Below, one piece after another: positions 50,152 to 62,502 of a DNA stretch of 64,000 nucleotides. The translations under genes were made by a program, and so were the position numbers. Position 1 is the stretch's first letter. Every line of letters starts with the position of its first letter. The stretch comes from Acidimicrobiia bacterium (GTDB taxonomy: Bacteria > Actinomycetota > Acidimicrobiia > Spongiisociales > Spongiisociaceae), in NCBI GenBank assembly GCA_041576165.1, contig JBFGLM010000020.1, positions 1-64,000 of the forward strand, read 5' to 3'. The notes below the pieces were generated by a model that was given only the letters and a program-made list of their open reading frames with translations, made no database searches and was not told where the DNA came from.

Positions 50152-52869
50152 GTGACGAGCATCCAGGCGACCCGTCATGACCGATCGTGGTGGGCCGAAG
50201 AAACTCAGGCCGTCGTGGATGAACTCGCGACTGACCGCGACACGGGGCTTTCGGCGGTTACTGCTCGGAGTCGGTTCGAGGAATACGGACCCAACGAACT
50301 CGGTGCCGAACCGGTCCGACCGCCGTTGTTCATCTTTGGATCGCAATTCGCCAACACAATGATCGTCGTCCTGCTGATTGCAGCGGTGATCACGCTGGTC
50401 ATCGGCGAAGTCAAAGACGCCATCGTGATTGGAGCGATCCTCACGCTGAACGCGGTTATCGGGTTCGTGCAGGAGTACCGGGCCGAGCAGGCCATGGCTG
50501 CGCTGCGCACCATGGCTGCCGCCACTGCCAGAGTCGTGCGGGGCGGGGTCGAGTCCACGATTGCCGCTGCCGAGCTCGTTCCCGGGGACCTCGTCATCGT
50601 CGAGGCCGGCGACGTGGTTCCTGCCGACGTGCGGTTGTTGGAGTGCCCGAACCTGCGGGTCAACGAAGCTCCGCTCACCGGAGAGTCGGTACCGGTGGAC
50701 AAAGCACCCGAGCCCATCTCCAAGGACGCCGGGGAGTTGGTTGCCGACCGGCGCAACATGGTTTTCAAAGGGACGTCCGTGGTCTACGGGCGCGGCGTTG
50801 GTGTCGTGGTCGCCACCGGCATGGACACTGCGCTCGGTCGCATTGCCGGGTTGCTCAAGGCACACCAAGCACCCCGGACGCCGTTGCAGCGGCGTTTGGC
50901 GGTGCTGGGGCGATGGTTGGCAGCCGCCGCACTCATTGTTTGCGTCGTTGTGTTCTCGGTGGGGGTTCTGCGGGGCCAGGACGTGACCTTGATGTTCTTG
51001 ACGGCCGTGAGTCTGGCTGTCGCTGCCATACCCGAGGCGCTGCCGGCCGTCGTGACGATATCCCTGGCGTTGGGGGCCCAGCGGATGGTCAGTCAGAACG
51101 CGCTCATCCGCAAGCTGCCGGCAGTCGAAACCCTCGGATCGGTAACAGTGATTTGTTCGGACAAGACCGGGACGCTGACGCAAGGACGGATGCTGGTCGA
51201 GCGGGTGTGGACACTCGACGGCGAGCTGGGAGTGACCGGCAACGGCTACGAGCCAAGTGGCTTGATAACCCGGGGCGGTGAACCCGTCCAGGTTGTACCG
51301 GACAGTCCGTCCGGACGGCTCCTACTGGCCGGCGCGCTGTGCAACGACGCCTCGCTGGTGGCGCCGTCCCAAGCGGGAGGCGATTGGGAGACCGCCGGTG
51401 ATCCAACCGAGGGAGCGTTGCTGGCGCTGGCCGCCAAAGGGGGGTTCGACGCCGACGCGGTGCGGCGTACAGCTCCTCGGGCCGCCGAGGTGCCGTTCGA
51501 TTCGGCTCGCAAGCTAATGGTGACGCTGCACCGGGATCCGTCGAGCCAGGGCCTCATTGCGGCCAAGGGAGCGGTCGAGGCGGTCGTGGCAGCGGCCGGC
51601 TCGGTCGCCGCAACAGCGGGGGACCAGCCCTTGACCGATGGGGTGCGTGACCGGTTCCTGGAACGGGCGACCGCTTACGCAGGTGAGGGCTATCGGGTGC
51701 TCGCCCTGGCCGGGCGCTTCACCTCCGATGGCGGCATACTCGACCTGGCGGACACGGACCTGAAGCTGGTTCTGTACGGGCTCGTGGCGATGGCGGACCC
51801 GCCCCGCCCGGAGTCTGCGGCGGCAGTTGCAGCGTGCAAGTCGGCCGGCATAACGCCGGTCATGATCACCGGTGATCATCCGGCTACGGGTGAAGCGATC
51901 GCAAACCGGCTCGGGATTCTCGACGGACGGCAGGTCGTGACTGGTACCCGACTCGTCGCCGGACTTGATGCCGACCTCGCCGAGCGTGTCGATCGGATCG
52001 GTGTCTACGCCCGCACCTCTCCTGAACAGAAGCTGGACATTGTTCAGGCCTGGAAGGCGCGCGGCGATGTGGTGGCCATGACGGGGGACGGCGTAAACGA
52101 CGCTCCCTCGTTGCGAGCGGCCGACATCGGGGTGGCGATGGGTGTTGCCGGCACCGAGGTCTCCAAGGAGGCGGCCGACATGGTGCTCATCGATGACAAC
52201 TTTGCCACCATCGTCGCCGCGGTCGGCGAAGGACGTCGCATCTACGACAATATCCGGCGTTTCGTCCGATACACCTTGACCTCCAACTCGGGTGAGATCT
52301 GGGTGATGTTCCTTGGGCCTTTTGTCGGGTTGTCTTTACCGCTACTTCCCGTTCACATCCTGTGGATCAATCTTGTCACCGACGGCCTTCCCGGGCTCGC
52401 ATTGGGGGTCGAGCCTGCCGAACGCGACGTAATGCACCGCCCGCCGCGTCCCCCGACCCAGAGCATCTTTGCGCACGGCTTGTGGCAGCACGTGCTGCTG
52501 GTCGGTTTGTTGATGGGCGTGATTCCGCTCGGCCTGGGCATTTGGGGCTCTGCCACGGGCCGGCCGTGGCAGACCATGGTGTTCACCTCGCTGGCGCTCC
52601 TCCAGCTGGGCCACGCTCTGGCCGTGCGGTCCGAAACTGAGTCGCTGCGGTCGCAGAAGCTGACCACCAATCTGGCCTTGCTGGGAGCGGTGGCGGGCAC
52701 GCTCCTCTTGCAACTGATCGTTGTGTACTGGTCGCCGCTGCAAAACCTCCTCCGCACCGATCCTTTGAGTCTCCTGGAACTGGGTGTTGTCCTGATCTCC
52801 TCCACCCTGGTGTTTTGGGCGGTTGAGCTCGAAAAAGCCGTCCGGCGTCGGGCCCGGCCGAAGGCGTAG
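50152..52869 (+). CDS. P2-type cation-transporting ATPase (Ca2+/Mn2+; CtpF/YoaB-like)
   Basis: TGES; IPEAL; DKTGTLT; GDPTE; MITGD; TGDGVND; WINLVTD. Confidence 0.95.
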   Translation: MTSIQATRHDRSWWAEETQAVVDELATDRDTGLSAVTARSRFEEYGPNELGAEPVRPPLFIFGSQFANTMIVVLLIAAVITLVIGEVKDAIVIGAILTLNAVIGFVQEYRAEQAMAALRTMAAATARVVRGGVESTIAAAELVPGDLVIVEAGDVVPADVRLLECPNLRVNEAPLTGESVPVDKAPEPISKDAGELVADRRNMVFKGTSVVYGRGVGVVVATGMDTALGRIAGLLKAHQAPRTPLQRRLAVLGRWLAAAALIVCVVVFSVGVLRGQDVTLMFLTAVSLAVAAIPEALPAVVTISLALGAQRMVSQNALIRKLPAVETLGSVTVICSDKTGTLTQGRMLVERVWTLDGELGVTGNGYEPSGLITRGGEPVQVVPDSPSGRLLLAGALCNDASLVAPSQAGGDWETAGDPTEGALLALAAKGGFDADAVRRTAPRAAEVPFDSARKLMVTLHRDPSSQGLIAAKGAVEAVVAAAGSVAATAGDQPLTDGVRDRFLERATAYAGEGYRVLALAGRFTSDGGILDLADTDLKLVLYGLVAMADPPRPESAAAVAACKSAGITPVMITGDHPATGEAIANRLGILDGRQVVTGTRLVAGLDADLAERVDRIGVYARTSPEQKLDIVQAWKARGDVVAMTGDGVNDAPSLRAADIGVAMGVAGTEVSKEAADMVLIDDNFATIVAAVGEGRRIYDNIRRFVRYTLTSNSGEIWVMFLGPFVGLSLPLLPVHILWINLVTDGLPGLALGVEPAERDVMHRPPRPPTQSIFAHGLWQHVLLVGLLMGVIPLGLGIWGSATGRPWQTMVFTSLALLQLGHALAVRSETESLRSQKLTTNLALLGAVAGTLLLQLIVVYWSPLQNLLRTDPLSLLELGVVLISSTLVFWAVELEKAVRRRARPKA

Positions 52870-52959: not shown

Positions 52960-53317
52960 GCGTCGCTGGCTACAACAGGAGGCCCGGACAGGACAGGAGG
53001 CGGATGAAGAACGGTCGACCCGCGACCGTCTCCGGAACGACCTCGACTTCCAGGAGAGCAACCGGGCCCGCGTGGAGCGCTTCGGGGACGAGGCGCCCGT
53101 CGATTCCAACGTCGTCACCACAGAGGATGCGCAACGGCTCGCCGCACAAACCGCGGCGGCGGTGCAAGGCACGGAACTTGGGGTCGCAGAGGCTGAGGCC
53201 CGAGAGAACCAGGCCCGTTCGCGGCTCGAGCTAGCTGACGAGCGCATGCGATCGGCCCGCCGGACCGATGAGGAGTGCAGCAAACGCTCCTCGAGCAATA
53301 CAAAGCCGACTGCATAG
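52960..53317 (+). other. Coiled-coil coding-like fragment with no clear start
   Basis: Charged helical text in ORF 52823-53317. Confidence 0.3.
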
Positions 53318-53387
53318 CGGGTCGGTAGGCCGTCGGCAGCCAGTCGGGCCGGATCGCGACACGCATAGCCGGATCGAACCCGATAGC

Positions 53388-54206
53388 GTGAGGTCCGTGA
53401 CTGGAATCCAGCGGGATGCCCGGGATCGCAGCCTGGCGCCACCTTTAGCCGACGTTGACCTGACGCCAAAGCTCAAGAAGTCGGACGAGCTCGAGCGGCT
53501 CAGGCTGGCGCAGGATCGTCTGCACCAATTGCGGCTCCAATGCGGTGGGAAGCTGGGCGGCGGGGCGCTGGGACCGCCGGTCACTTTCGTATTCGAGGGA
53601 TGGGACGCAGCCGGGAAGGGGGGCGCGATCAAGCGGCTGGTCGCCCGGATGGATCCCCGACATTTTCGGGTCGTCCAGTACGGGGCGCCCACCGCCGACG
53701 AGCTGCGCCACCACTGGCTGACCCGCTTCTGGCCTCAGCTACCGGGATGGGGTGGTATGGCCATATACGACCGATCGTGGTACGGCCGAGTCCTGGTCGA
53801 GCGTGTCGAAGGTTATGCCAGCGATGAGCAGTGGGAGCGGGCGTACAACGAGATCCGGGACTTCGAGCGGACCCTGCATTCCGAGGGGATGGTGTTGATC
53901 AAGTACTGGTTGCATATCTCTCACGAGGAGCAGTTCCGCCGGTTCGAAGCCCGCCGGCAGAACCCACTCAAGTCGTACAAGCTCACAGAAGAAGATTGGC
54001 GCAACCGAGCGAAACGCCACTACTACGAGAAGGCCATCGAAGAGATGTTCAAAGAGACATCGATCCCTGAAGCGCCGTGGATCGTCGTACCGGCCGAAAA
54101 CAAACGTTACGCCCGTGCGTTCGTGCTGGAACAAGCGATTGAGATGATGGAGGCCGGGATGCGGCGCCACGGCCTCGACCCGCTGCCGCTGCTCCGACGC
54201 GACTGA
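53388..54206 (+). CDS. ppk2: Polyphosphate kinase 2 family protein
   Basis: FEGWDAAGKGGAIKR; DRSWYGRVLVERVEG; KLTEEDWRNR. Confidence 0.93.
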   Translation: MRSVTGIQRDARDRSLAPPLADVDLTPKLKKSDELERLRLAQDRLHQLRLQCGGKLGGGALGPPVTFVFEGWDAAGKGGAIKRLVARMDPRHFRVVQYGAPTADELRHHWLTRFWPQLPGWGGMAIYDRSWYGRVLVERVEGYASDEQWERAYNEIRDFERTLHSEGMVLIKYWLHISHEEQFRRFEARRQNPLKSYKLTEEDWRNRAKRHYYEKAIEEMFKETSIPEAPWIVVPAENKRYARAFVLEQAIEMMEAGMRRHGLDPLPLLRRD

Positions 54207-54218
54207 CCGAATGTCGGG

Positions 54219-54740
54219 TCAGGGGAGCCCGGCGATGTACGTGACGAGGCCGTCGATCTCTGCGTCGCTCAGGGTAGAGGTGTAATTTGACGGCATGATG
54301 CCGCTATTGAACCCGCTGGCGACCGACGCGTTCGGGTCGACGATCGACTCGCGCAGGTAGGCCTCGTCGATCGTGCGTCCGTCGGGCGCCGTGGAGCCGA
54401 ACAAGCCGGCCCAGGTGGGCCCCACCCGTTCGCTTCCATCAATCGAGTGGCACGCAAGACATCCCACGTTCTGAGCGATCGTGGCACCGTCGACGTCGAG
54501 GTTCGCTGCGCCCTCGTCGGCGGCCGGGGCCGACTCTGACGCCGCGGGCATCATCGGCATCATCGTATCGGGCCTGTGCGAGGCCTCGCGCGACACCAGG
54601 ACCAGAAACAGGAGGCCCAACACTGCGAAGAAGCCTGCCAGGACTCCGATTCCGAACAGCGCACCACGTGGCGGGGGCTGGAGCGTATCCGGATCCGCGT
54701 GAATCTCGTCTGCTTGGTGCATGGTGGCAGTTGACGACAT
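54219..54740 (-). CDS. Membrane-anchored monoheme cytochrome c
   Basis: One TM helix; CLACH; GPTWAGL; YLRESIVDP; IMP axial Met. Confidence 0.88.
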   Translation of the reverse strand: MSSTATMHQADEIHADPDTLQPPPRGALFGIGVLAGFFAVLGLLFLVLVSREASHRPDTMMPMMPAASESAPAADEGAANLDVDGATIAQNVGCLACHSIDGSERVGPTWAGLFGSTAPDGRTIDEAYLRESIVDPNASVASGFNSGIMPSNYTSTLSDAEIDGLVTYIAGLP

Positions 54741-54850
54741 CCCGGTGACCGAGGACCAGGGCAGCAACGTCCATCAGGCCGGGCCGAATGACCCTAAAAA
54801 GCCCGGCCGTGCGTGCGGATCATGGGTCAACCCGATTAGAGGATGACGAG

Positions 54851-55405
54851 GTGGCCCCACTCACGCGACGCGAATTCCTGTTCCTTGGCGTAGCGACCGG
54901 AGCGACTGCCGCGGTAGGCGTCGTGCTTCCGATCATGCGCACGGTCGAGGGAGAACCGGTGGCCACTTCGCAGCCGGCGCTGGTCGGCCTGTTCCCGCGC
55001 CAGTCCGTGGCGAAGGTGTCGGACCTGATGCCGGGCGAGCCGGTGCTGTTTGACTATCCGCTCGCTGGTCAGGCGAACATGCTCGTCAAGTTGGGAACGC
55101 CGGTCGCTACCGGAGCAGGGGCGGACGGTGATCTGGTGGCGTTCTCACGCATCTGCACCCACATGGGTTGTGTGATCGACGAATACCGGGCGGACGTCAA
55201 TGTGCTGGGACCCTGCCCGTGCCACTTCTCGACATTCGACTTTGCCCACAATGGCCAGGTCGTGCTGGGGCAGGCCACGCAGAACCTGCCGCAGGTTTTG
55301 CTCGAGATCGATGGAGACGACATCTACGCGGTCGGCGTCGTCCGGTTGATCTACGGGTTCAATGATCCGCTCGTCAGTGCCGAACAGCTGGAGGTGGTCT
55401 CGTGA
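54851..55405 (+). CDS. AioB/IdrB-like Rieske [2Fe-2S] small subunit with Tat signal
   Basis: TRREFL; CTHMGC; GPCPCHFSTFD; GQATQNLPQV. Confidence 0.9.
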   Translation: MAPLTRREFLFLGVATGATAAVGVVLPIMRTVEGEPVATSQPALVGLFPRQSVAKVSDLMPGEPVLFDYPLAGQANMLVKLGTPVATGAGADGDLVAFSRICTHMGCVIDEYRADVNVLGPCPCHFSTFDFAHNGQVVLGQATQNLPQVLLEIDGDDIYAVGVVRLIYGFNDPLVSAEQLEVVS

Positions 55406-57882
55406 CGCAAGCGCTCCCTGCCAACGTACCGCTGCCGCCCCCCGACGCTGAACAGCGCATCATTTGCTGCGAGTACTGCCCGGTGGCGTGCGGTTACCAG
55501 GTCTACATCTGGCCGCTCGACCGCGAGGGTGGGCCGGCCGCAGCCGACAACGCTCTCGGCGTTGACTTCCCGACGGCGCCGCTCAGCGGCCGCTGGCCGT
55601 CTCAGAACATGCACACCGTGGCCGAGGTCGACGGGGAGATGCGCAACGTGCTCATCATGCCCGATGCCGACATCCAGGCCGTGAACGTTGGAGGCACGCA
55701 CTCGGTGCGAGGCGGCGCCCTCGCCAAGAAGCTGTACAACCCGGGAAGCCTCACCGGCGATCGCTACCTGCGACCCATGTTGCGGGTCCGGGGGGACCTG
55801 GTTCCAATTTCCTGGGACGTGGCCATTGACCTCGTCGCAAAGCTGTCTCGCCATGTAGTGGACAACTACGGCGAGCTGGCGTGGGGTATGAAGATCTACT
55901 CGTATCAGTTCTTCGAAAACACCTACGCGGCATCGAAGCTGGCTTTACTCAACATCGGGACACCCAACTTCTCGCCCCACCATGCCCCGGCCGAGGGCGA
56001 CGACGTGCCCGGCCTGTCAGACACCGGTATCGACGCATTCGGCTCCTCGTTCGAAGACGACAGAGCGGCTGACGTGCTGTTCATCGCGGGCTCCGACCCG
56101 TACGAGACCAAGACCGTGCGGTTCACGACGTGGCAACAGCCCGGGGGCGCGACCATCATCTACGTCGATCCCCGCAAGACGTTCACTGCCGCCTATGCGG
56201 AGGCTCACGGCGGCCTGCACCTGCAGCTGCTACCCGGCACCGACACGGCGCTGTACAACGCCATCGTGCGGGAGATCATCGCCCAGGGTTGGGAGGACGA
56301 AGAGTTCGTTTCTCAGTACACGGCTTCGCGGGCCGACCTGGACGCTGAGGACGGCTGGCGCCGACAGCTGTTCGGCCTGACGTTCGATGAGCTGCGGGAA
56401 TACCTCTTCTCGCACGCCGACTTCACCCTCGAGGGCGCCGAGAGGGAAACCGGAGTGCCGGCCGACAAGATCCGGCGAGCGGCGGAGCTGATGACGGGTG
56501 GCGGCGGAGACCGGCCGAAGACGACGATCCTTTTCGAGAAGGGTGTGTACTGGTCGCACAACTACGAGAACACCGCCGCGATCGGCAATCTGGGCGTCGT
56601 GACGGGTTCTGTCGGGCGCGAAGGTCGGGCGATCAGCCGCATGGGTGGTCATCAGCGCGGAGGCATGAAGGCCGCCGGCTATCCCAAGGACAAGTCGCCC
56701 GACGAATACCAGGGCAACAAGATCGAGATGGACACCGAGCGGTGGTTCGTGCAAGGAAACACCCGCTTGCGCTGGATTGTCGGCACGAATTGGCTGGGGG
56801 CGATGGGCGCCACCCAGGCGCTGGTCGATGTCACCCGCCGTCTGACCTCGATTGGCCCCGTCGTGCCGTCGACCGACCCTGATCGGGCCTTCGAAGCCCT
56901 CAAGGCCCGTATCGACCAAGGCGGCACGGTCATCGTCCATCAGGAGATATATCCCAACGATTCGACGCCCTATGCCGACATCATTCTGGCCGCCGGCGGA
57001 TGGGGAGAGGACAACTACACACGCAACAACGCGGAGCGCCGGCTGCGGCTATACGAGAAGATCGCCGATCCTCCTGGTGAGGCCAAGCCGGACTGGCAGA
57101 TCTTTGCCGAAGTGGGTCGCAAGATGGGCTACGACGGGTTCGATTGGGCCGACACCAACGAGATCTTCGAGGAGACGGCTCCGTTTGCGTCGGGCCGCAA
57201 GGACTACACGGCGCTCATCGAAAAGGCGCAAGCGGACGGGGTTCGTGCCCACGATCTGCTCAAGACATACGGCAACACCGGCATCCAGACGCCGCTCACC
57301 CTCGAGGGCGGAGAGCTGGTCGGCACGCCTCGGCTGCACGCCGATCTGGCTTTCAAGACCAACTCGGGCAAGGCCAACTTCGTGCGGGCCGACTGGGATG
57401 ACGTGAAAGCGCGCAATGCGATGCTGGCGCCGTCCGGCGATGAGCTATGGGTGACGAACGGGCGGGTCAATGAATTGTGGAACAACTTGTTCGATCACGC
57501 CCGCCGCGAGATCTCGAACGAGCGCTTCCCAGTCAACTTCCTCGAGATCTCGGAGAACGACGCAGCCGCCCGGGGCGTCGTGTCGGGTGATTTGCTCTCG
57601 ATCGAGTCGGACGGAGTGCTTGATCAGCTAGGCCAACCAACGACGGGCTCGTTCACGGCCGTTGCATACGTCAGCCCGCTGGTTCCGGACGGCGTGACGT
57701 TCACGTACTTCCTGTTCCCCGGCCAGCCGTCCAACACTGTGACGCCCGCCGATACCAGCCTGCAGCCGATCAATCTGCGTTACAACTTCAAGCTCGGCAA
57801 GGGTCGGGTCTCCAAGATCGGATCCACCCGGCTCACCGAGACGATGTCCTTCGCTCCTCGGAATCTGGTACCAGGAGTGTGA
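55402..57882 (+). CDS. AioA/IdrA-family molybdopterin large subunit with [3Fe-4S] cluster
   Basis: CEYCPVACGY (CX2CX3C) plus HSVRGG; YSYQFFENTYA; DPYETKT; EKG; RMGGHQRG; NGRVNE. Confidence 0.9.
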   Translation: MTQALPANVPLPPPDAEQRIICCEYCPVACGYQVYIWPLDREGGPAAADNALGVDFPTAPLSGRWPSQNMHTVAEVDGEMRNVLIMPDADIQAVNVGGTHSVRGGALAKKLYNPGSLTGDRYLRPMLRVRGDLVPISWDVAIDLVAKLSRHVVDNYGELAWGMKIYSYQFFENTYAASKLALLNIGTPNFSPHHAPAEGDDVPGLSDTGIDAFGSSFEDDRAADVLFIAGSDPYETKTVRFTTWQQPGGATIIYVDPRKTFTAAYAEAHGGLHLQLLPGTDTALYNAIVREIIAQGWEDEEFVSQYTASRADLDAEDGWRRQLFGLTFDELREYLFSHADFTLEGAERETGVPADKIRRAAELMTGGGGDRPKTTILFEKGVYWSHNYENTAAIGNLGVVTGSVGREGRAISRMGGHQRGGMKAAGYPKDKSPDEYQGNKIEMDTERWFVQGNTRLRWIVGTNWLGAMGATQALVDVTRRLTSIGPVVPSTDPDRAFEALKARIDQGGTVIVHQEIYPNDSTPYADIILAAGGWGEDNYTRNNAERRLRLYEKIADPPGEAKPDWQIFAEVGRKMGYDGFDWADTNEIFEETAPFASGRKDYTALIEKAQADGVRAHDLLKTYGNTGIQTPLTLEGGELVGTPRLHADLAFKTNSGKANFVRADWDDVKARNAMLAPSGDELWVTNGRVNELWNNLFDHARREISNERFPVNFLEISENDAAARGVVSGDLLSIESDGVLDQLGQPTTGSFTAVAYVSPLVPDGVTFTYFLFPGQPSNTVTPADTSLQPINLRYNFKLGKGRVSKIGSTRLTETMSFAPRNLVPGV

Positions 57883-58993: not shown

Positions 58994-60619
58994 TCAGCGG
59001 TGGGCCCATTCGAGGAAATCTACCCTGGCCCAGGTATTGACTACCGCCTCGGGGCGAACACCGGCCTGCTGCATCACCGCAACGGAGTGGGCCACATTGT
59101 CGAGCTCATGCAGCCGGTGGGCGTCGCTGTTGGCTGCGAGCAGCACACCGGAAGCAACCGCGGAGGCGACCAGGTCTGCTGAGAGGTCGAGCCGGTCGCG
59201 GTGTCCGTTGACCTCGAGCGCCGTCCCGCTTGCGGCCGCAGCTTCAAGAACGGCATCTACGTCGAGATCGAATGGGGGGCGAATTCCGATACGGCGCCCC
59301 GTTGGGTGAGCGAGCACGCGAACAGCCGGGTGGGCCAAGGCTCGGACCACCCGTGCCGTCTGTTCCTTCCGGCTGAGGTCGAAGTGCGAGTGGCAACCGG
59401 CAACAACGAAGTCGAGCCACCCCAGCGTCTGATCGTCGAGGTCGGGGTTTCCATTGCGGTCGATGTTGATCTCGGCGCCATGCAGGATGACCAGATCTGA
59501 ATATCGAGAACGGAGCTCGTTGATCTCTGCGCGCTGCGTGCGCAACCCCGCCGCGTCCAGCGCTCCAAAGCGGAGTCCCACCGGGTGGTCGGTGATCACC
59601 AGATAGCCATACCCCCGCGCCTGCGCTTGGTTCGCTGCGTCCTCGAGACGCATGTGGCCGTCTGGCGACCAGTCGGTGTGAACGTGGAGATCTCCTCGCA
59701 GGTTCGAGGCCGTCACCAGGTTGGTGGCGTCGATCAGGCGGCCCGTCCTGGCAGGAGGAGGAATCCACGCTACGCCGGCACCGGCGTAGACGTCTTCTTC
59801 CGTTGAGTGATCGGTGTGTTCGCGGAACAGCAGGCGTACGTGGTCGGTGGGTCCGGTCGCTGCGACGAGCGCTGAGCCCGCGCGAGCGGGTGGGCTCAAG
59901 AGCACGGTCGCAGCGGCCCCGCTGTGTAGTCGCAGTGCGACCCGATCGGCGGCAGCCTCGGACCCGGACGCAAGCGCCGTCCGTGACAGAAAGTCGATTG
60001 CTGGCTCAATCCGGTCAGTGACCATTAGCAGATCTAGCGCCTCCACCCATTCGGTCACCCGCCGGACTTGGCCGGCAACCTGCACGGCGCCGTCAGCGTA
60101 TTGATCGAGGTGGGCGGCCAGGCGACCGGCGATCACCGCCGCATCATGCGCCGGCAGTGCCTCTGGCGAGGGCGGCATGGTCAAGACCCGTTCCCACATC
60201 GCCGCCGTGGCCGGGCCGACACCGTTGAGTGTTTCGGCCGCGCCGGCGTCGATGGCGAGCAGCAGGTCATTGACGGTGTCGATACCCAAATCGACCTTCA
60301 TTGCCCGGAGTCGATCGGCTCGCATTCGCGGGAGGCGAAGCATCGTTGATGCATCGCGCGGATAGCGGCTCAGCATGTCCTCTAGTTCCGGCACGCGGCC
60401 GGTCTCACGAAACTCACGGATGACCCGCGCAATGCCGCTCCCGATCCCGTTGACCCTTGTTAGTTCTTCATCGGAACCCTTCAGATCTTCAGGCAGGTTG
60501 TCCAGTGCCCATACCGCTCGTTCGTAGGCTCTCGCCCGGAACGACCGTCGGGTGTCACTCCTCAGAAGTTCGGACAGCTTCCACAGCGCCGCGCCGAGCT
60601 CTCTTCGCTTTGATGTCAC
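58994..60619 (-). CDS. polX: PolX-PHP protein (DNA polymerase X / 3'-5' exonuclease)
   Basis: FRARAYERA; GIGSG HhH; DLHVHTDWS.DG; TDH; AHPTGR; NSDAH. Confidence 0.88.
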   Translation of the reverse strand: MTSKRRELGAALWKLSELLRSDTRRSFRARAYERAVWALDNLPEDLKGSDEELTRVNGIGSGIARVIREFRETGRVPELEDMLSRYPRDASTMLRLPRMRADRLRAMKVDLGIDTVNDLLLAIDAGAAETLNGVGPATAAMWERVLTMPPSPEALPAHDAAVIAGRLAAHLDQYADGAVQVAGQVRRVTEWVEALDLLMVTDRIEPAIDFLSRTALASGSEAAADRVALRLHSGAAATVLLSPPARAGSALVAATGPTDHVRLLFREHTDHSTEEDVYAGAGVAWIPPPARTGRLIDATNLVTASNLRGDLHVHTDWSPDGHMRLEDAANQAQARGYGYLVITDHPVGLRFGALDAAGLRTQRAEINELRSRYSDLVILHGAEINIDRNGNPDLDDQTLGWLDFVVAGCHSHFDLSRKEQTARVVRALAHPAVRVLAHPTGRRIGIRPPFDLDVDAVLEAAAASGTALEVNGHRDRLDLSADLVASAVASGVLLAANSDAHRLHELDNVAHSVAVMQQAGVRPEAVVNTWARVDFLEWAHR

Positions 60620-61790: not shown

Positions 61791-62348
61791 TCACCCGCTA
61801 CCGGGATCTATCTTCACGCCTGAGAAGCTGACATCGACAGCTTCCGCGTAGCGCCGGCCGTTCTTCTTGTCGTGACGATGGAAGGTGGGCGGGTCAACGT
61901 GAACGTCGATCTGATACGAAGCGGCTTCGGGCACCGTCACGTTGGCGCCGTAGTGGTACAGCCACGGATGCCACAGCATGGGGAGCCGTCCCTCGAATGC
62001 GACGGCGCCGGTCGATTCGTCGGTCACCTTGACCGTCACCTCGAGCCCGGGGATGAACCGGTGGTCGGCCGCGTCACGAACCGAGATCTCGATGTGGGCG
62101 TTGTATTCGTCAGGCTCGCGCCAGACGAGGCTGCCGTCGACCATCTCGTGCATACCCTCGGCGCCTTCGATGGCATAGGCCACAATTACGTCACCGACGT
62201 GCTCATCGCCACCCGCGTCAGCGACCGTGTTGGCCATGTGGTGGAGAGCCGTTACGTATGCGTCACCCTGGGCCTGAGCCATGCGATGCTGATGAGGGGC
62301 GGCCTCGTCCGACGCCTTGGTCGGCGGGACACCGGTCGTCTGAGTCAT
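61791..62348 (-). CDS. P19/Tp34-family iron/copper-binding protein
   Basis: AIEGAEGM; AHIE; RFIP.L.V; HYGANV; PPTFHRHD; GGAGG RBS. Confidence 0.8.
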   Translation of the reverse strand: MTQTTGVPPTKASDEAAPHQHRMAQAQGDAYVTALHHMANTVADAGGDEHVGDVIVAYAIEGAEGMHEMVDGSLVWREPDEYNAHIEISVRDAADHRFIPGLEVTVKVTDESTGAVAFEGRLPMLWHPWLYHYGANVTVPEAASYQIDVHVDPPTFHRHDKKNGRRYAEAVDVSFSGVKIDPGSG

Positions 62349-62502
62349 GATGTGGCCTCCGCTGCTTCCTGCGATGTGCACCATCAGTACCCGGCTACCG
62401 GGCTGAGGAAACACGACGCACCGATGACGCGGCTGGCGCCGGTGGGTTGCCCCCGGGCCAGCCGCATGGGACCGGCCTGCATCTGACGCGCTGCCCTGGC
62501 TG

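Follow-up and report, generated by a model that had tools for sequence, protein, structure and literature searches.

The window analysed here, a stretch of 64,000 nucleotides from an Acidimicrobiia bacterium (contig JBFGLM010000020.1 of assembly GCA_041576165.1; contig C20 of a 5.1 Mb genome that is 96.5% complete and 7.5% contaminated), carries at positions 54219–57882 a three-gene locus for a molybdoenzyme of the family that includes the arsenite oxidase AioA and the iodate reductase IdrA. An earlier note had described a twin-arginine translocation (Tat) Rieske gene overlapping a molybdopterin gene, with a divergent, membrane-anchored monoheme cytochrome c gene beside them, and this arrangement was confirmed in all its parts; the three open reading frames are intact, and the GC content at the locus showed no anomaly. 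The cytochrome c gene (54219–54740, minus strand; 173 amino acids) most likely starts with the ATG at 54740, an alternative start being 54722. Its product passed the PF00034 cut-off in the profile search and contains a transmembrane helix (hydropathy 2.9), a CLACH motif at residue 94, and Met149; the top PDB match was 1W2L, the cytochrome c domain of an oxidase subunit II (E = 1.6e-17). It is probably the one-electron carrier for the Rieske subunit. The latter, a Tat-exported [2Fe-2S] protein of the AioB/IdrB family (54851–55405, plus strand; 184 amino acids), scored 132 bits against TIGR02694 (cut-off 95.65) and has the Tat motif TRREFL and the CTHMGC and CPCH boxes, disulfide cysteines included. 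Its GTG start at 54851 is backed by a ribosome-binding site and by homologues; with this start and ATG 54740, the spacing of 110 bp between the two divergent genes given in the note holds.

The Rieske gene overlaps by GTGA with the gene for the catalytic subunit (55402–57882, plus strand), an 826-amino-acid molybdopterin (bis-pyranopterin guanine dinucleotide) protein with PF18465, PF00384, and PF01568 domains, [3Fe-4S] ligands C23/C26/C30/S101, and alanine at the Mo-ligand position. The locus thus combines the features of the AioA/IdrA family, namely the CX2CX3CX70S pattern, a Mo that no amino acid ligates, and a Tat-Rieske partner. The structure model of the catalytic subunit (predicted local distance difference test score 94.8) superimposed on AioA structures with template modelling scores of 0.86–0.88 at 28% identity. 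The motifs previously called IdrA-type were found at residues 166 (YSYQFFENTYA), 232 (DPYETKT), and 413 (RMGGHQRG), and the substrate-funnel loop HHAPAEGDDVPG at residue 193. As had been predicted, annotation pipelines label the protein AioA (TIGR02693, 444 bits with a cut-off of 359); this model is not discriminating, since the IdrA of Azonexus bears the same annotation.

Relatives of the catalytic subunit were gathered from genome and metagenome contigs, protein searches, and annotated plasmids. Trees were built with FastTree on 162 rows and IQ-TREE on 65 rows (LG+G4 or FastTree LG models), and a subset of 29 of these 65 rows served for approximately unbiased (AU) tests of the groupings window+IdrA, X+IdrA, X+Y, and X+AioA. 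Both trees concurred in separating canonical AioA, the branches of the P0125 and P0127 groups, and a further branch comprising clade X, clade Y, and IdrA. Support in the Shimodaira–Hasegawa-like approximate likelihood ratio test (SH-aLRT) was 100 for the joint branch, 99 for clade X, which holds the window protein, 95 for clade Y, 100 for the IdrA clade, and 99 for Y+IdrA. Clade X, represented here by 124 sequences, lies outside AioA and IdrA as the sister of clade Y plus IdrA. The AU test rejected the grouping of AioA with the window protein (p 0.016) and with clade X (p 9e-108), that of IdrA with the window protein (p 1e-96), and the joining of X and Y. The view that the protein is neither a canonical AioA nor an IdrA was therefore borne out by the IQ-TREE phylogeny and the AU tests, and clade X is, on its sequences, a mis-annotated branch of the known AioA/IdrA family.

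Named members of clade X are mostly marine Acidimicrobiia, with some Thermoplasmata, Dehalococcoidia, Gaiellales, and Nitrososphaerales. The nearest relatives of the window protein belong to Acidimicrobiia metagenome-assembled genomes (86–89% identity); together with the presence of DosS and DosR and a neighbouring PPK2 gene that matches Actinomycetota clusters, this agrees with the actinobacterial host proposed before. The distribution is patchy: of 401 genomes belonging to the host's class, 10 had a match to the family (one of them IdrA-type), and there was none in the 28 from the host's own family. One clade X locus, L012, is titled Kiloniellales yet is nested among Acidimicrobiia and has both a DosR box and a DosR-like gene; it is possibly misbinned. 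Clade Y (L042, L049, L061, L077, L123, L135; P0124, P0279) is a second peroxidase-less branch and the immediate sister of IdrA; it has an IdrA-like funnel (D200/D207/R453), and its members come from Chloroflexota and myxobacteria and also comprise very acidic proteins of probable haloarchaeal origin.

The protein had also been assigned to the uncharacterised sister clade of AioA and IdrA. According to the accessible part of Reyes-Umana et al. (2022; PMC8692401), that "unknown clade" consists of Halorubrum and Halobiforma proteins and one Dehalococcoidia protein, MBT97654.1. It resembles clade X in its position between AioA and IdrA and in its lack of peroxidases, but the assignment was not supported: Halobiforma WP_007141861.1 (P0561) falls in a separate, AioA-like branch, the P0127 group, whose members are 40–43% identical to the window protein. 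This group retains N200, R201, E207, and E453 in 27 of 27 sequences; with these arsenite-type residues, the argument for arsenite oxidation in that branch is not transferable to clade X. MBT97654.1 was not found among the members listed for the 30 clusters looked up, and it may belong to X or Y. The acidic protein P0124 does not represent the Halorubrum branch; it groups in clade Y.

Funnel positions were taken from the sequence alignment with NT-26 numbering; 44 of its 412 rows lie outside the six groups. The accessible part of Engrola et al. (PMC10448176) names eight second-sphere residues in AioA: D169, H199, R201, E207, K413, R447, H451, and E453. H199, K413, R447, and H451 were near-universal across the groups, and these four of the eight are kept in the window protein, which has S167, A195, D201, and R419 in place of D169, R201, E207, and E453. 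In the 124 rows of clade X (the window and some cluster members included), these positions are occupied by S (121), A or N (123), D (124), and R (124). The 96 IdrA rows have S (95), mostly K or Q, D (78), and R (95), and the nine AioA rows D, R, E, and E, with the D/E/E combination in 9 of 9. Thus, of the four funnel positions at which AioA and IdrA differ, the window protein is IdrA-like at three (S167, D201, R419), and it shows the IdrA-type combination of S169, D/S207, and R453. Among strongly conserved columns that differ between groups, clade X sided with IdrA at three and with the arsenite-type group at none. The replacement of a carboxylate by arginine would fit an anionic substrate better than the neutral As(OH)3, and parsimony would place the switch at the base of the X+Y+IdrA branch. 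IdrA has three insertions of approximately 9, 17, and 21 residues without counterpart in X, which one might speculate to be docking sites for the peroxidases.

Two points on gene order had to be corrected. Azonexus NCP973 has the order peroxidase–peroxidase–B–A, not the idrA–idrB order given earlier, and the B-before-A order does not discriminate, because idr loci run the same way: among loci with sufficient sequence, the Rieske gene preceded the Mo gene in 23/23 X loci and in 82/82 IdrA loci, the latter with at least 700 bp upstream. The reported lack of peroxidases was upheld beyond the window, since no CCP_MauG gene was found in the 96.5% complete host genome. Of 25 clade X genomes, 21 were without any CCP match and four had one, two of these weak. 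In the close relative G448, a peroxidase fragment lies at a contig end and the operon is likewise cut by a contig end, so that linkage is possible there. Separately, the host has a gene of the catalase-peroxidase family; three IdrA-clade loci (L031, L033, L126) are without adjacent peroxidases, the L031 genome having no CCP_MauG match; and G268 (C3:76572–81635) and G056 (C70), from the host's order, contain a true idr cluster with two peroxidases. The absence of arsenic genes from the window was also supported, as 14 queries gave no hit to ars, aioXS, pst, or phn genes there. Arsenic or phosphate-island genes were found in none of the 34 clade X loci; arsenic-related genes adjoin all four annotated AioA loci. 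The host genome gave no match to AioX or AioS and none to Acr3 above the cut-off; its ArsC-like gene and its aquaporin gene are on a different contig, unlinked to the operon.

The divergent gene turned out to occupy a conserved slot, which supports the previously suggested role of the cytochrome c as electron partner. Sixteen non-redundant inner-X loci extend at least 700 bp upstream; in 13 of them, a divergent gene encodes a redox-domain protein with a single membrane helix at its N-terminus: a cytochrome c of three sequence types in seven, and a type-1 copper protein (auracyanin/plastocyanin-like) in six. The window, with a cytochrome c, and its nearest relative L006, with a copper protein, differ in carrier, although their Mo subunits are 86% identical. 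The occurrence of unrelated folds in one slot makes a good case for a dedicated one-electron partner, the direction of electron flow not being given by it. No divergent carrier was found in L111, L113, and L180, in seven outer X loci, or in 12 Y or peroxidase-less IdrA loci.

The divergent intergenic region contains a predicted palindromic box of DosR/OsdR type (54781–54794). The element was taken from Table 1 in the accessible part of PMC5069765, and its ten-position core was scored; the box matches 9/10 core positions and 12/16 of the published OsdR consensus. It is followed after 23 nt by a putative -10 element, GATCAT (54818–54823, plus strand). An A2/T6 hexamer of this kind was present 22–24 nt after the chosen box in 18/18 loci, with the full TANNNT in 12; the window has one of the six weaker copies. 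The box stands 64–94 nt ahead of the Tat motif and has the same position in relatives. Scores of at least 9/10 were obtained in 10 of 15 loci and of at least 8 in 13, compared with 1.7% and 14.5% of 4784 host gene-upstream windows; control windows reached at least 9/10 in 0, 1, and 0 of 15. On the carrier side, a -10 element was present in only some loci, which makes co-regulation of the carrier less certain. A generic sigma-70 promoter and terminator scan of the locus gave nothing above chance, and a genome-wide position weight matrix (PWM) scan was discarded as stand-alone evidence for its lack of specificity.

The host encodes homologues of the cognate regulator DevR (E = 7.7e-62; next 3.3e-37) and of the DosT/DevS GAF domain (E = 1e-39), which lie beside Usp genes. 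The box-plus-spacing pattern occurs upstream of 51 of 4777 host genes, including the regulator itself, a Usp gene, and Hsp20-like and PPDK-like genes (named by eye). A DosR-like gene was found in 20 of 21 bacterial and none of three archaeal clade X genomes; the sole bacterial genome without it, G419, also is without box and carrier. NarL-type regulators stand beside 8 of the 34 X loci, where Usp, Hsp20, PNPOx, and PPDK genes recur too. With the box spaced from the -10 element as expected of an activator site, and with the cognate regulator encoded in the genome, the operon is a predicted member of a regulon of DosR/OsdR type; it shares with the actinobacterial DosR/DevR and OsdR regulons the box sequence, the kinase and regulator homologues, and the Usp/Hsp20/PPDK co-targets. 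In PMC5069765, the respiratory nitrate reductase nar2 has OsdR boxes ahead of it, and the accessible part of its site table names no AioA/IdrA-family target. No DosR box was evident directly upstream of the true idr operons in G268 and G056. Among the sequence runs listed as matching the window there was no RNA run; four of the five runs with over half of its words are marine metagenomes, and four of the five come from one study that is possibly the source. As further observations, the host has a dosS–dosR island (G000:C13:33987–39071) in which DosR is encoded at C13:35721–36395, alongside another regulator, Usp, PNPOx-like genes, and a cupredoxin, and its other cupredoxin genes (C18, C49) carry DosR-type boxes too; in G419, the Rieske gene (L180:6400–6700) seems frameshifted after the Tat peptide, through decay or an assembly error.

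Taken together, the residues, promoter, and neighbourhoods shift the balance towards an enzyme that reduces an anion when oxygen is low. We propose, with a probability of about one half, that the locus encodes a hypoxia-induced oxyanion reductase on the outer face of the membrane, most likely an iodate reductase without the IdrP1/P2 peroxidases. At low oxygen, the heme kinase DosS would activate DosR, which would bind the box and switch on transcription of the Rieske and Mo genes; the Tat signal of the Rieske subunit would co-export the Mo subunit. Electrons would pass from the quinol pool to the tethered cytochrome c (a blue-copper protein in relatives) and on through the Rieske and [3Fe-4S] centres to Mo, where a funnel with Arg and Ser in place of the acidic E453 and D169 of AioA, as in IdrA, would bind the anion; iodate would be reduced to HOI, which would disproportionate to iodide. 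The choice of iodate is supported by the single X+Y+IdrA branch, in which iodate reduction is the only characterised activity, and by a habitat that, judged from the matching runs, is mostly marine. Midpoint potentials of such carriers are approximately +0.2 to +0.35 V, and the iodate/HOI couple, at approximately +0.62 V at pH 7, lies above them. Carriers with these midpoints could pass electrons to iodate, nitrate, or selenate and take them up from arsenite, but could support neither arsenate reduction nor iodide oxidation.

The locus shares with IdrABP1P2 of Pseudomonas SCT, Denitromonas IR-12, and Azonexus NCP973 an identity of 40–52%, the B–A order, the Tat-Rieske subunit, the [3Fe-4S] cluster, and the funnel residues S169/D207/R453. 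Low-oxygen expression, predicted for clade X, would be a further likeness; according to the accessible part of PMC11445184, idr genes are induced at low oxygen with iodate. It differs in its place outside the IdrA clade, in the lack of the peroxidase pair and the three insertions, in H instead of D at position 200, and in its Rieske disulfide, tethered cytochrome c or blue-copper partner, and DosR-type promoter.

Several observations weigh against an iodate reductase. The AU test rejected placement of X inside IdrA or directly joined to it (p 0.0014 for X+I). Peroxidases flank 67/70 IdrA-clade loci but 0/15 X and 0/6 Y loci for which 3 kb of upstream sequence was available, and all five isolates described in the accessible part of PMC10149662 carry IdrP1P2, which co-purifies with IdrA. 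Clade X has funnel residues of its own, H194 at position 200 (123/124 sequences, versus Asp in IdrA) and A/N at 201, and keeps the Rieske disulfide cysteines that are missing from IdrB. The cytochrome is similar to an oxidase-feeding domain, and a caa3 oxidase is encoded in the host; AioAB, too, usually passes its electrons to cytochrome c or azurin. Many of the 34 X loci are short contigs. As for the promoter, the position window of the box was set after the hits had been seen, and the loci are related rather than independent; three loci outside the 15 (L091, L111, L113) scored 6, 6, and 7; genome-wide the box is not rare (rank 15), with more PWM hits in shuffled than in real DNA; and DosR regulons contain many non-reductases.

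Much of the evidence for iodate, namely the promoter and the Arg-lined funnel, applies equally to a hypoxia-induced reductase of another high-potential oxyanion, such as nitrate, selenate, bromate, or chlorate, with the same electron path. In sediments, nitrate greatly exceeds iodate. The clade-specific H194 and A195 and the absence of peroxidases would suggest a different substrate or product, and OsdR controls nitrate reductase in Streptomyces in the accessible part of PMC5069765. However, such activity is known for no member of the family, chlorite dismutase was not found in the host, and the host's type II DMSO-reductase operon could serve such acceptors; we regard this explanation as unlikely. 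That operon (G000:C43:11933–18737; alpha, beta, chaperone, and heme-b genes) is unclassified, with all components below family cut-offs, and another Mo enzyme with an Fe-S partner is encoded at C13:8806–13336.

It is likewise doubtful that the locus encodes a divergent arsenite or antimonite oxidase whose electrons would reach the caa3 oxidase by way of the carrier, perhaps in microoxic conditions. The fold, the cofactors, the Mo without a protein ligand, and H199, K413, R447, and H451 are shared with AioAB of NT-26, A. faecalis, and Thermus, as are the cytochrome c or cupredoxin partner and the Rieske disulfide; in addition, the AioA model cut-off is passed, the host has the unlinked ArsC-like gene and aquaporin, and the E453A and D169A substitutions lowered AioA activity by just 30–65% (accessible part of PMC10448176). 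Against this stand an identity of 28–35%, the replacement of D169, R201, E207, and E453, the last by charge reversal, and the AU rejection of both groupings with AioA. The haloarchaeal branch linked to arsenite oxidation, moreover, keeps R201, E207, and E453 throughout, and the arsenic genes and regulators detailed above (aioXSR, ars, pst) are missing from the neighbourhood, with no AioX or AioS match and no Acr3 above the cut-off in the host. An oxidase of another reduced anion, such as sulfite, selenite, or iodide, would suit the cationic funnel and oxidase-type carrier but is improbable, given that a class I cytochrome c would be a strongly unfavourable acceptor for the oxidation of iodide to HOI (approximately +0.78 V) and that no sulfur-metabolism gene recurred among the 63 neighbour proteins scanned.

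For clade X as a whole, we suggest more tentatively, at slightly less than even odds, that it forms a second family of respiratory iodate reductases, one free of peroxidases, within the DosR regulon of marine Acidimicrobiia, with a swappable tethered carrier; this family would have branched off before IdrA gained its peroxidases and is now counted as arsenite oxidase in metagenome surveys. In the mainly non-subscription literature covered, we found no published account of an Acidimicrobiia clade without peroxidases or of the carrier and promoter that go with it; the trees and supplements of Saunders 2019, Rascovan 2016, and Yamazaki 2020, and the figure images of all the papers, may include X sequences. 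New here are the swappable carrier slot and the DosR/OsdR-type box with a -10 element ahead of the operon across the clade. Iodate reducers are now recognised by the full idrABP1P2 set, and clade X genes are filed as arsenite oxidase; if X reduces iodate, both the iodine and the arsenic inventory of marine sediments are wrong, and a common class of actinobacteria takes part in the iodine cycle. A natural peroxidase-free enzyme would also test the two published Idr mechanisms, in which H2O2 is either a true product or an incidental by-product. Independently of the substrate, the few changes in the funnel that underlie the switch from arsenite to iodate can be followed along the series AioA, haloarchaeal branch, X, Y, and IdrA.

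The locus is flanked by a cation P-type ATPase gene (50152–52869), the PPK2 gene (53268–54206), and a PolX/PHP-like gene (58994–60619); PPK2 is also close to the operon in L113 and L180. Further along the window are genes for a secreted lysyl-oxidase-domain protein (PF01186; 62503–64000) and an Fe2+ transport (P19-like) protein (61791–62400). Elsewhere in the family, P0134, P0150, P0155, and approximately 20 similar sequences have AioA/IdrA-family Mo domains fused in proteins of 1100–2100 amino acids with an HDRP funnel motif. Their C-terminal domains, judged by eye, vary from flavin oxidoreductase-like (Ca. Anammoxibacter) to repeats with a beta-propeller and a LodA-like region.

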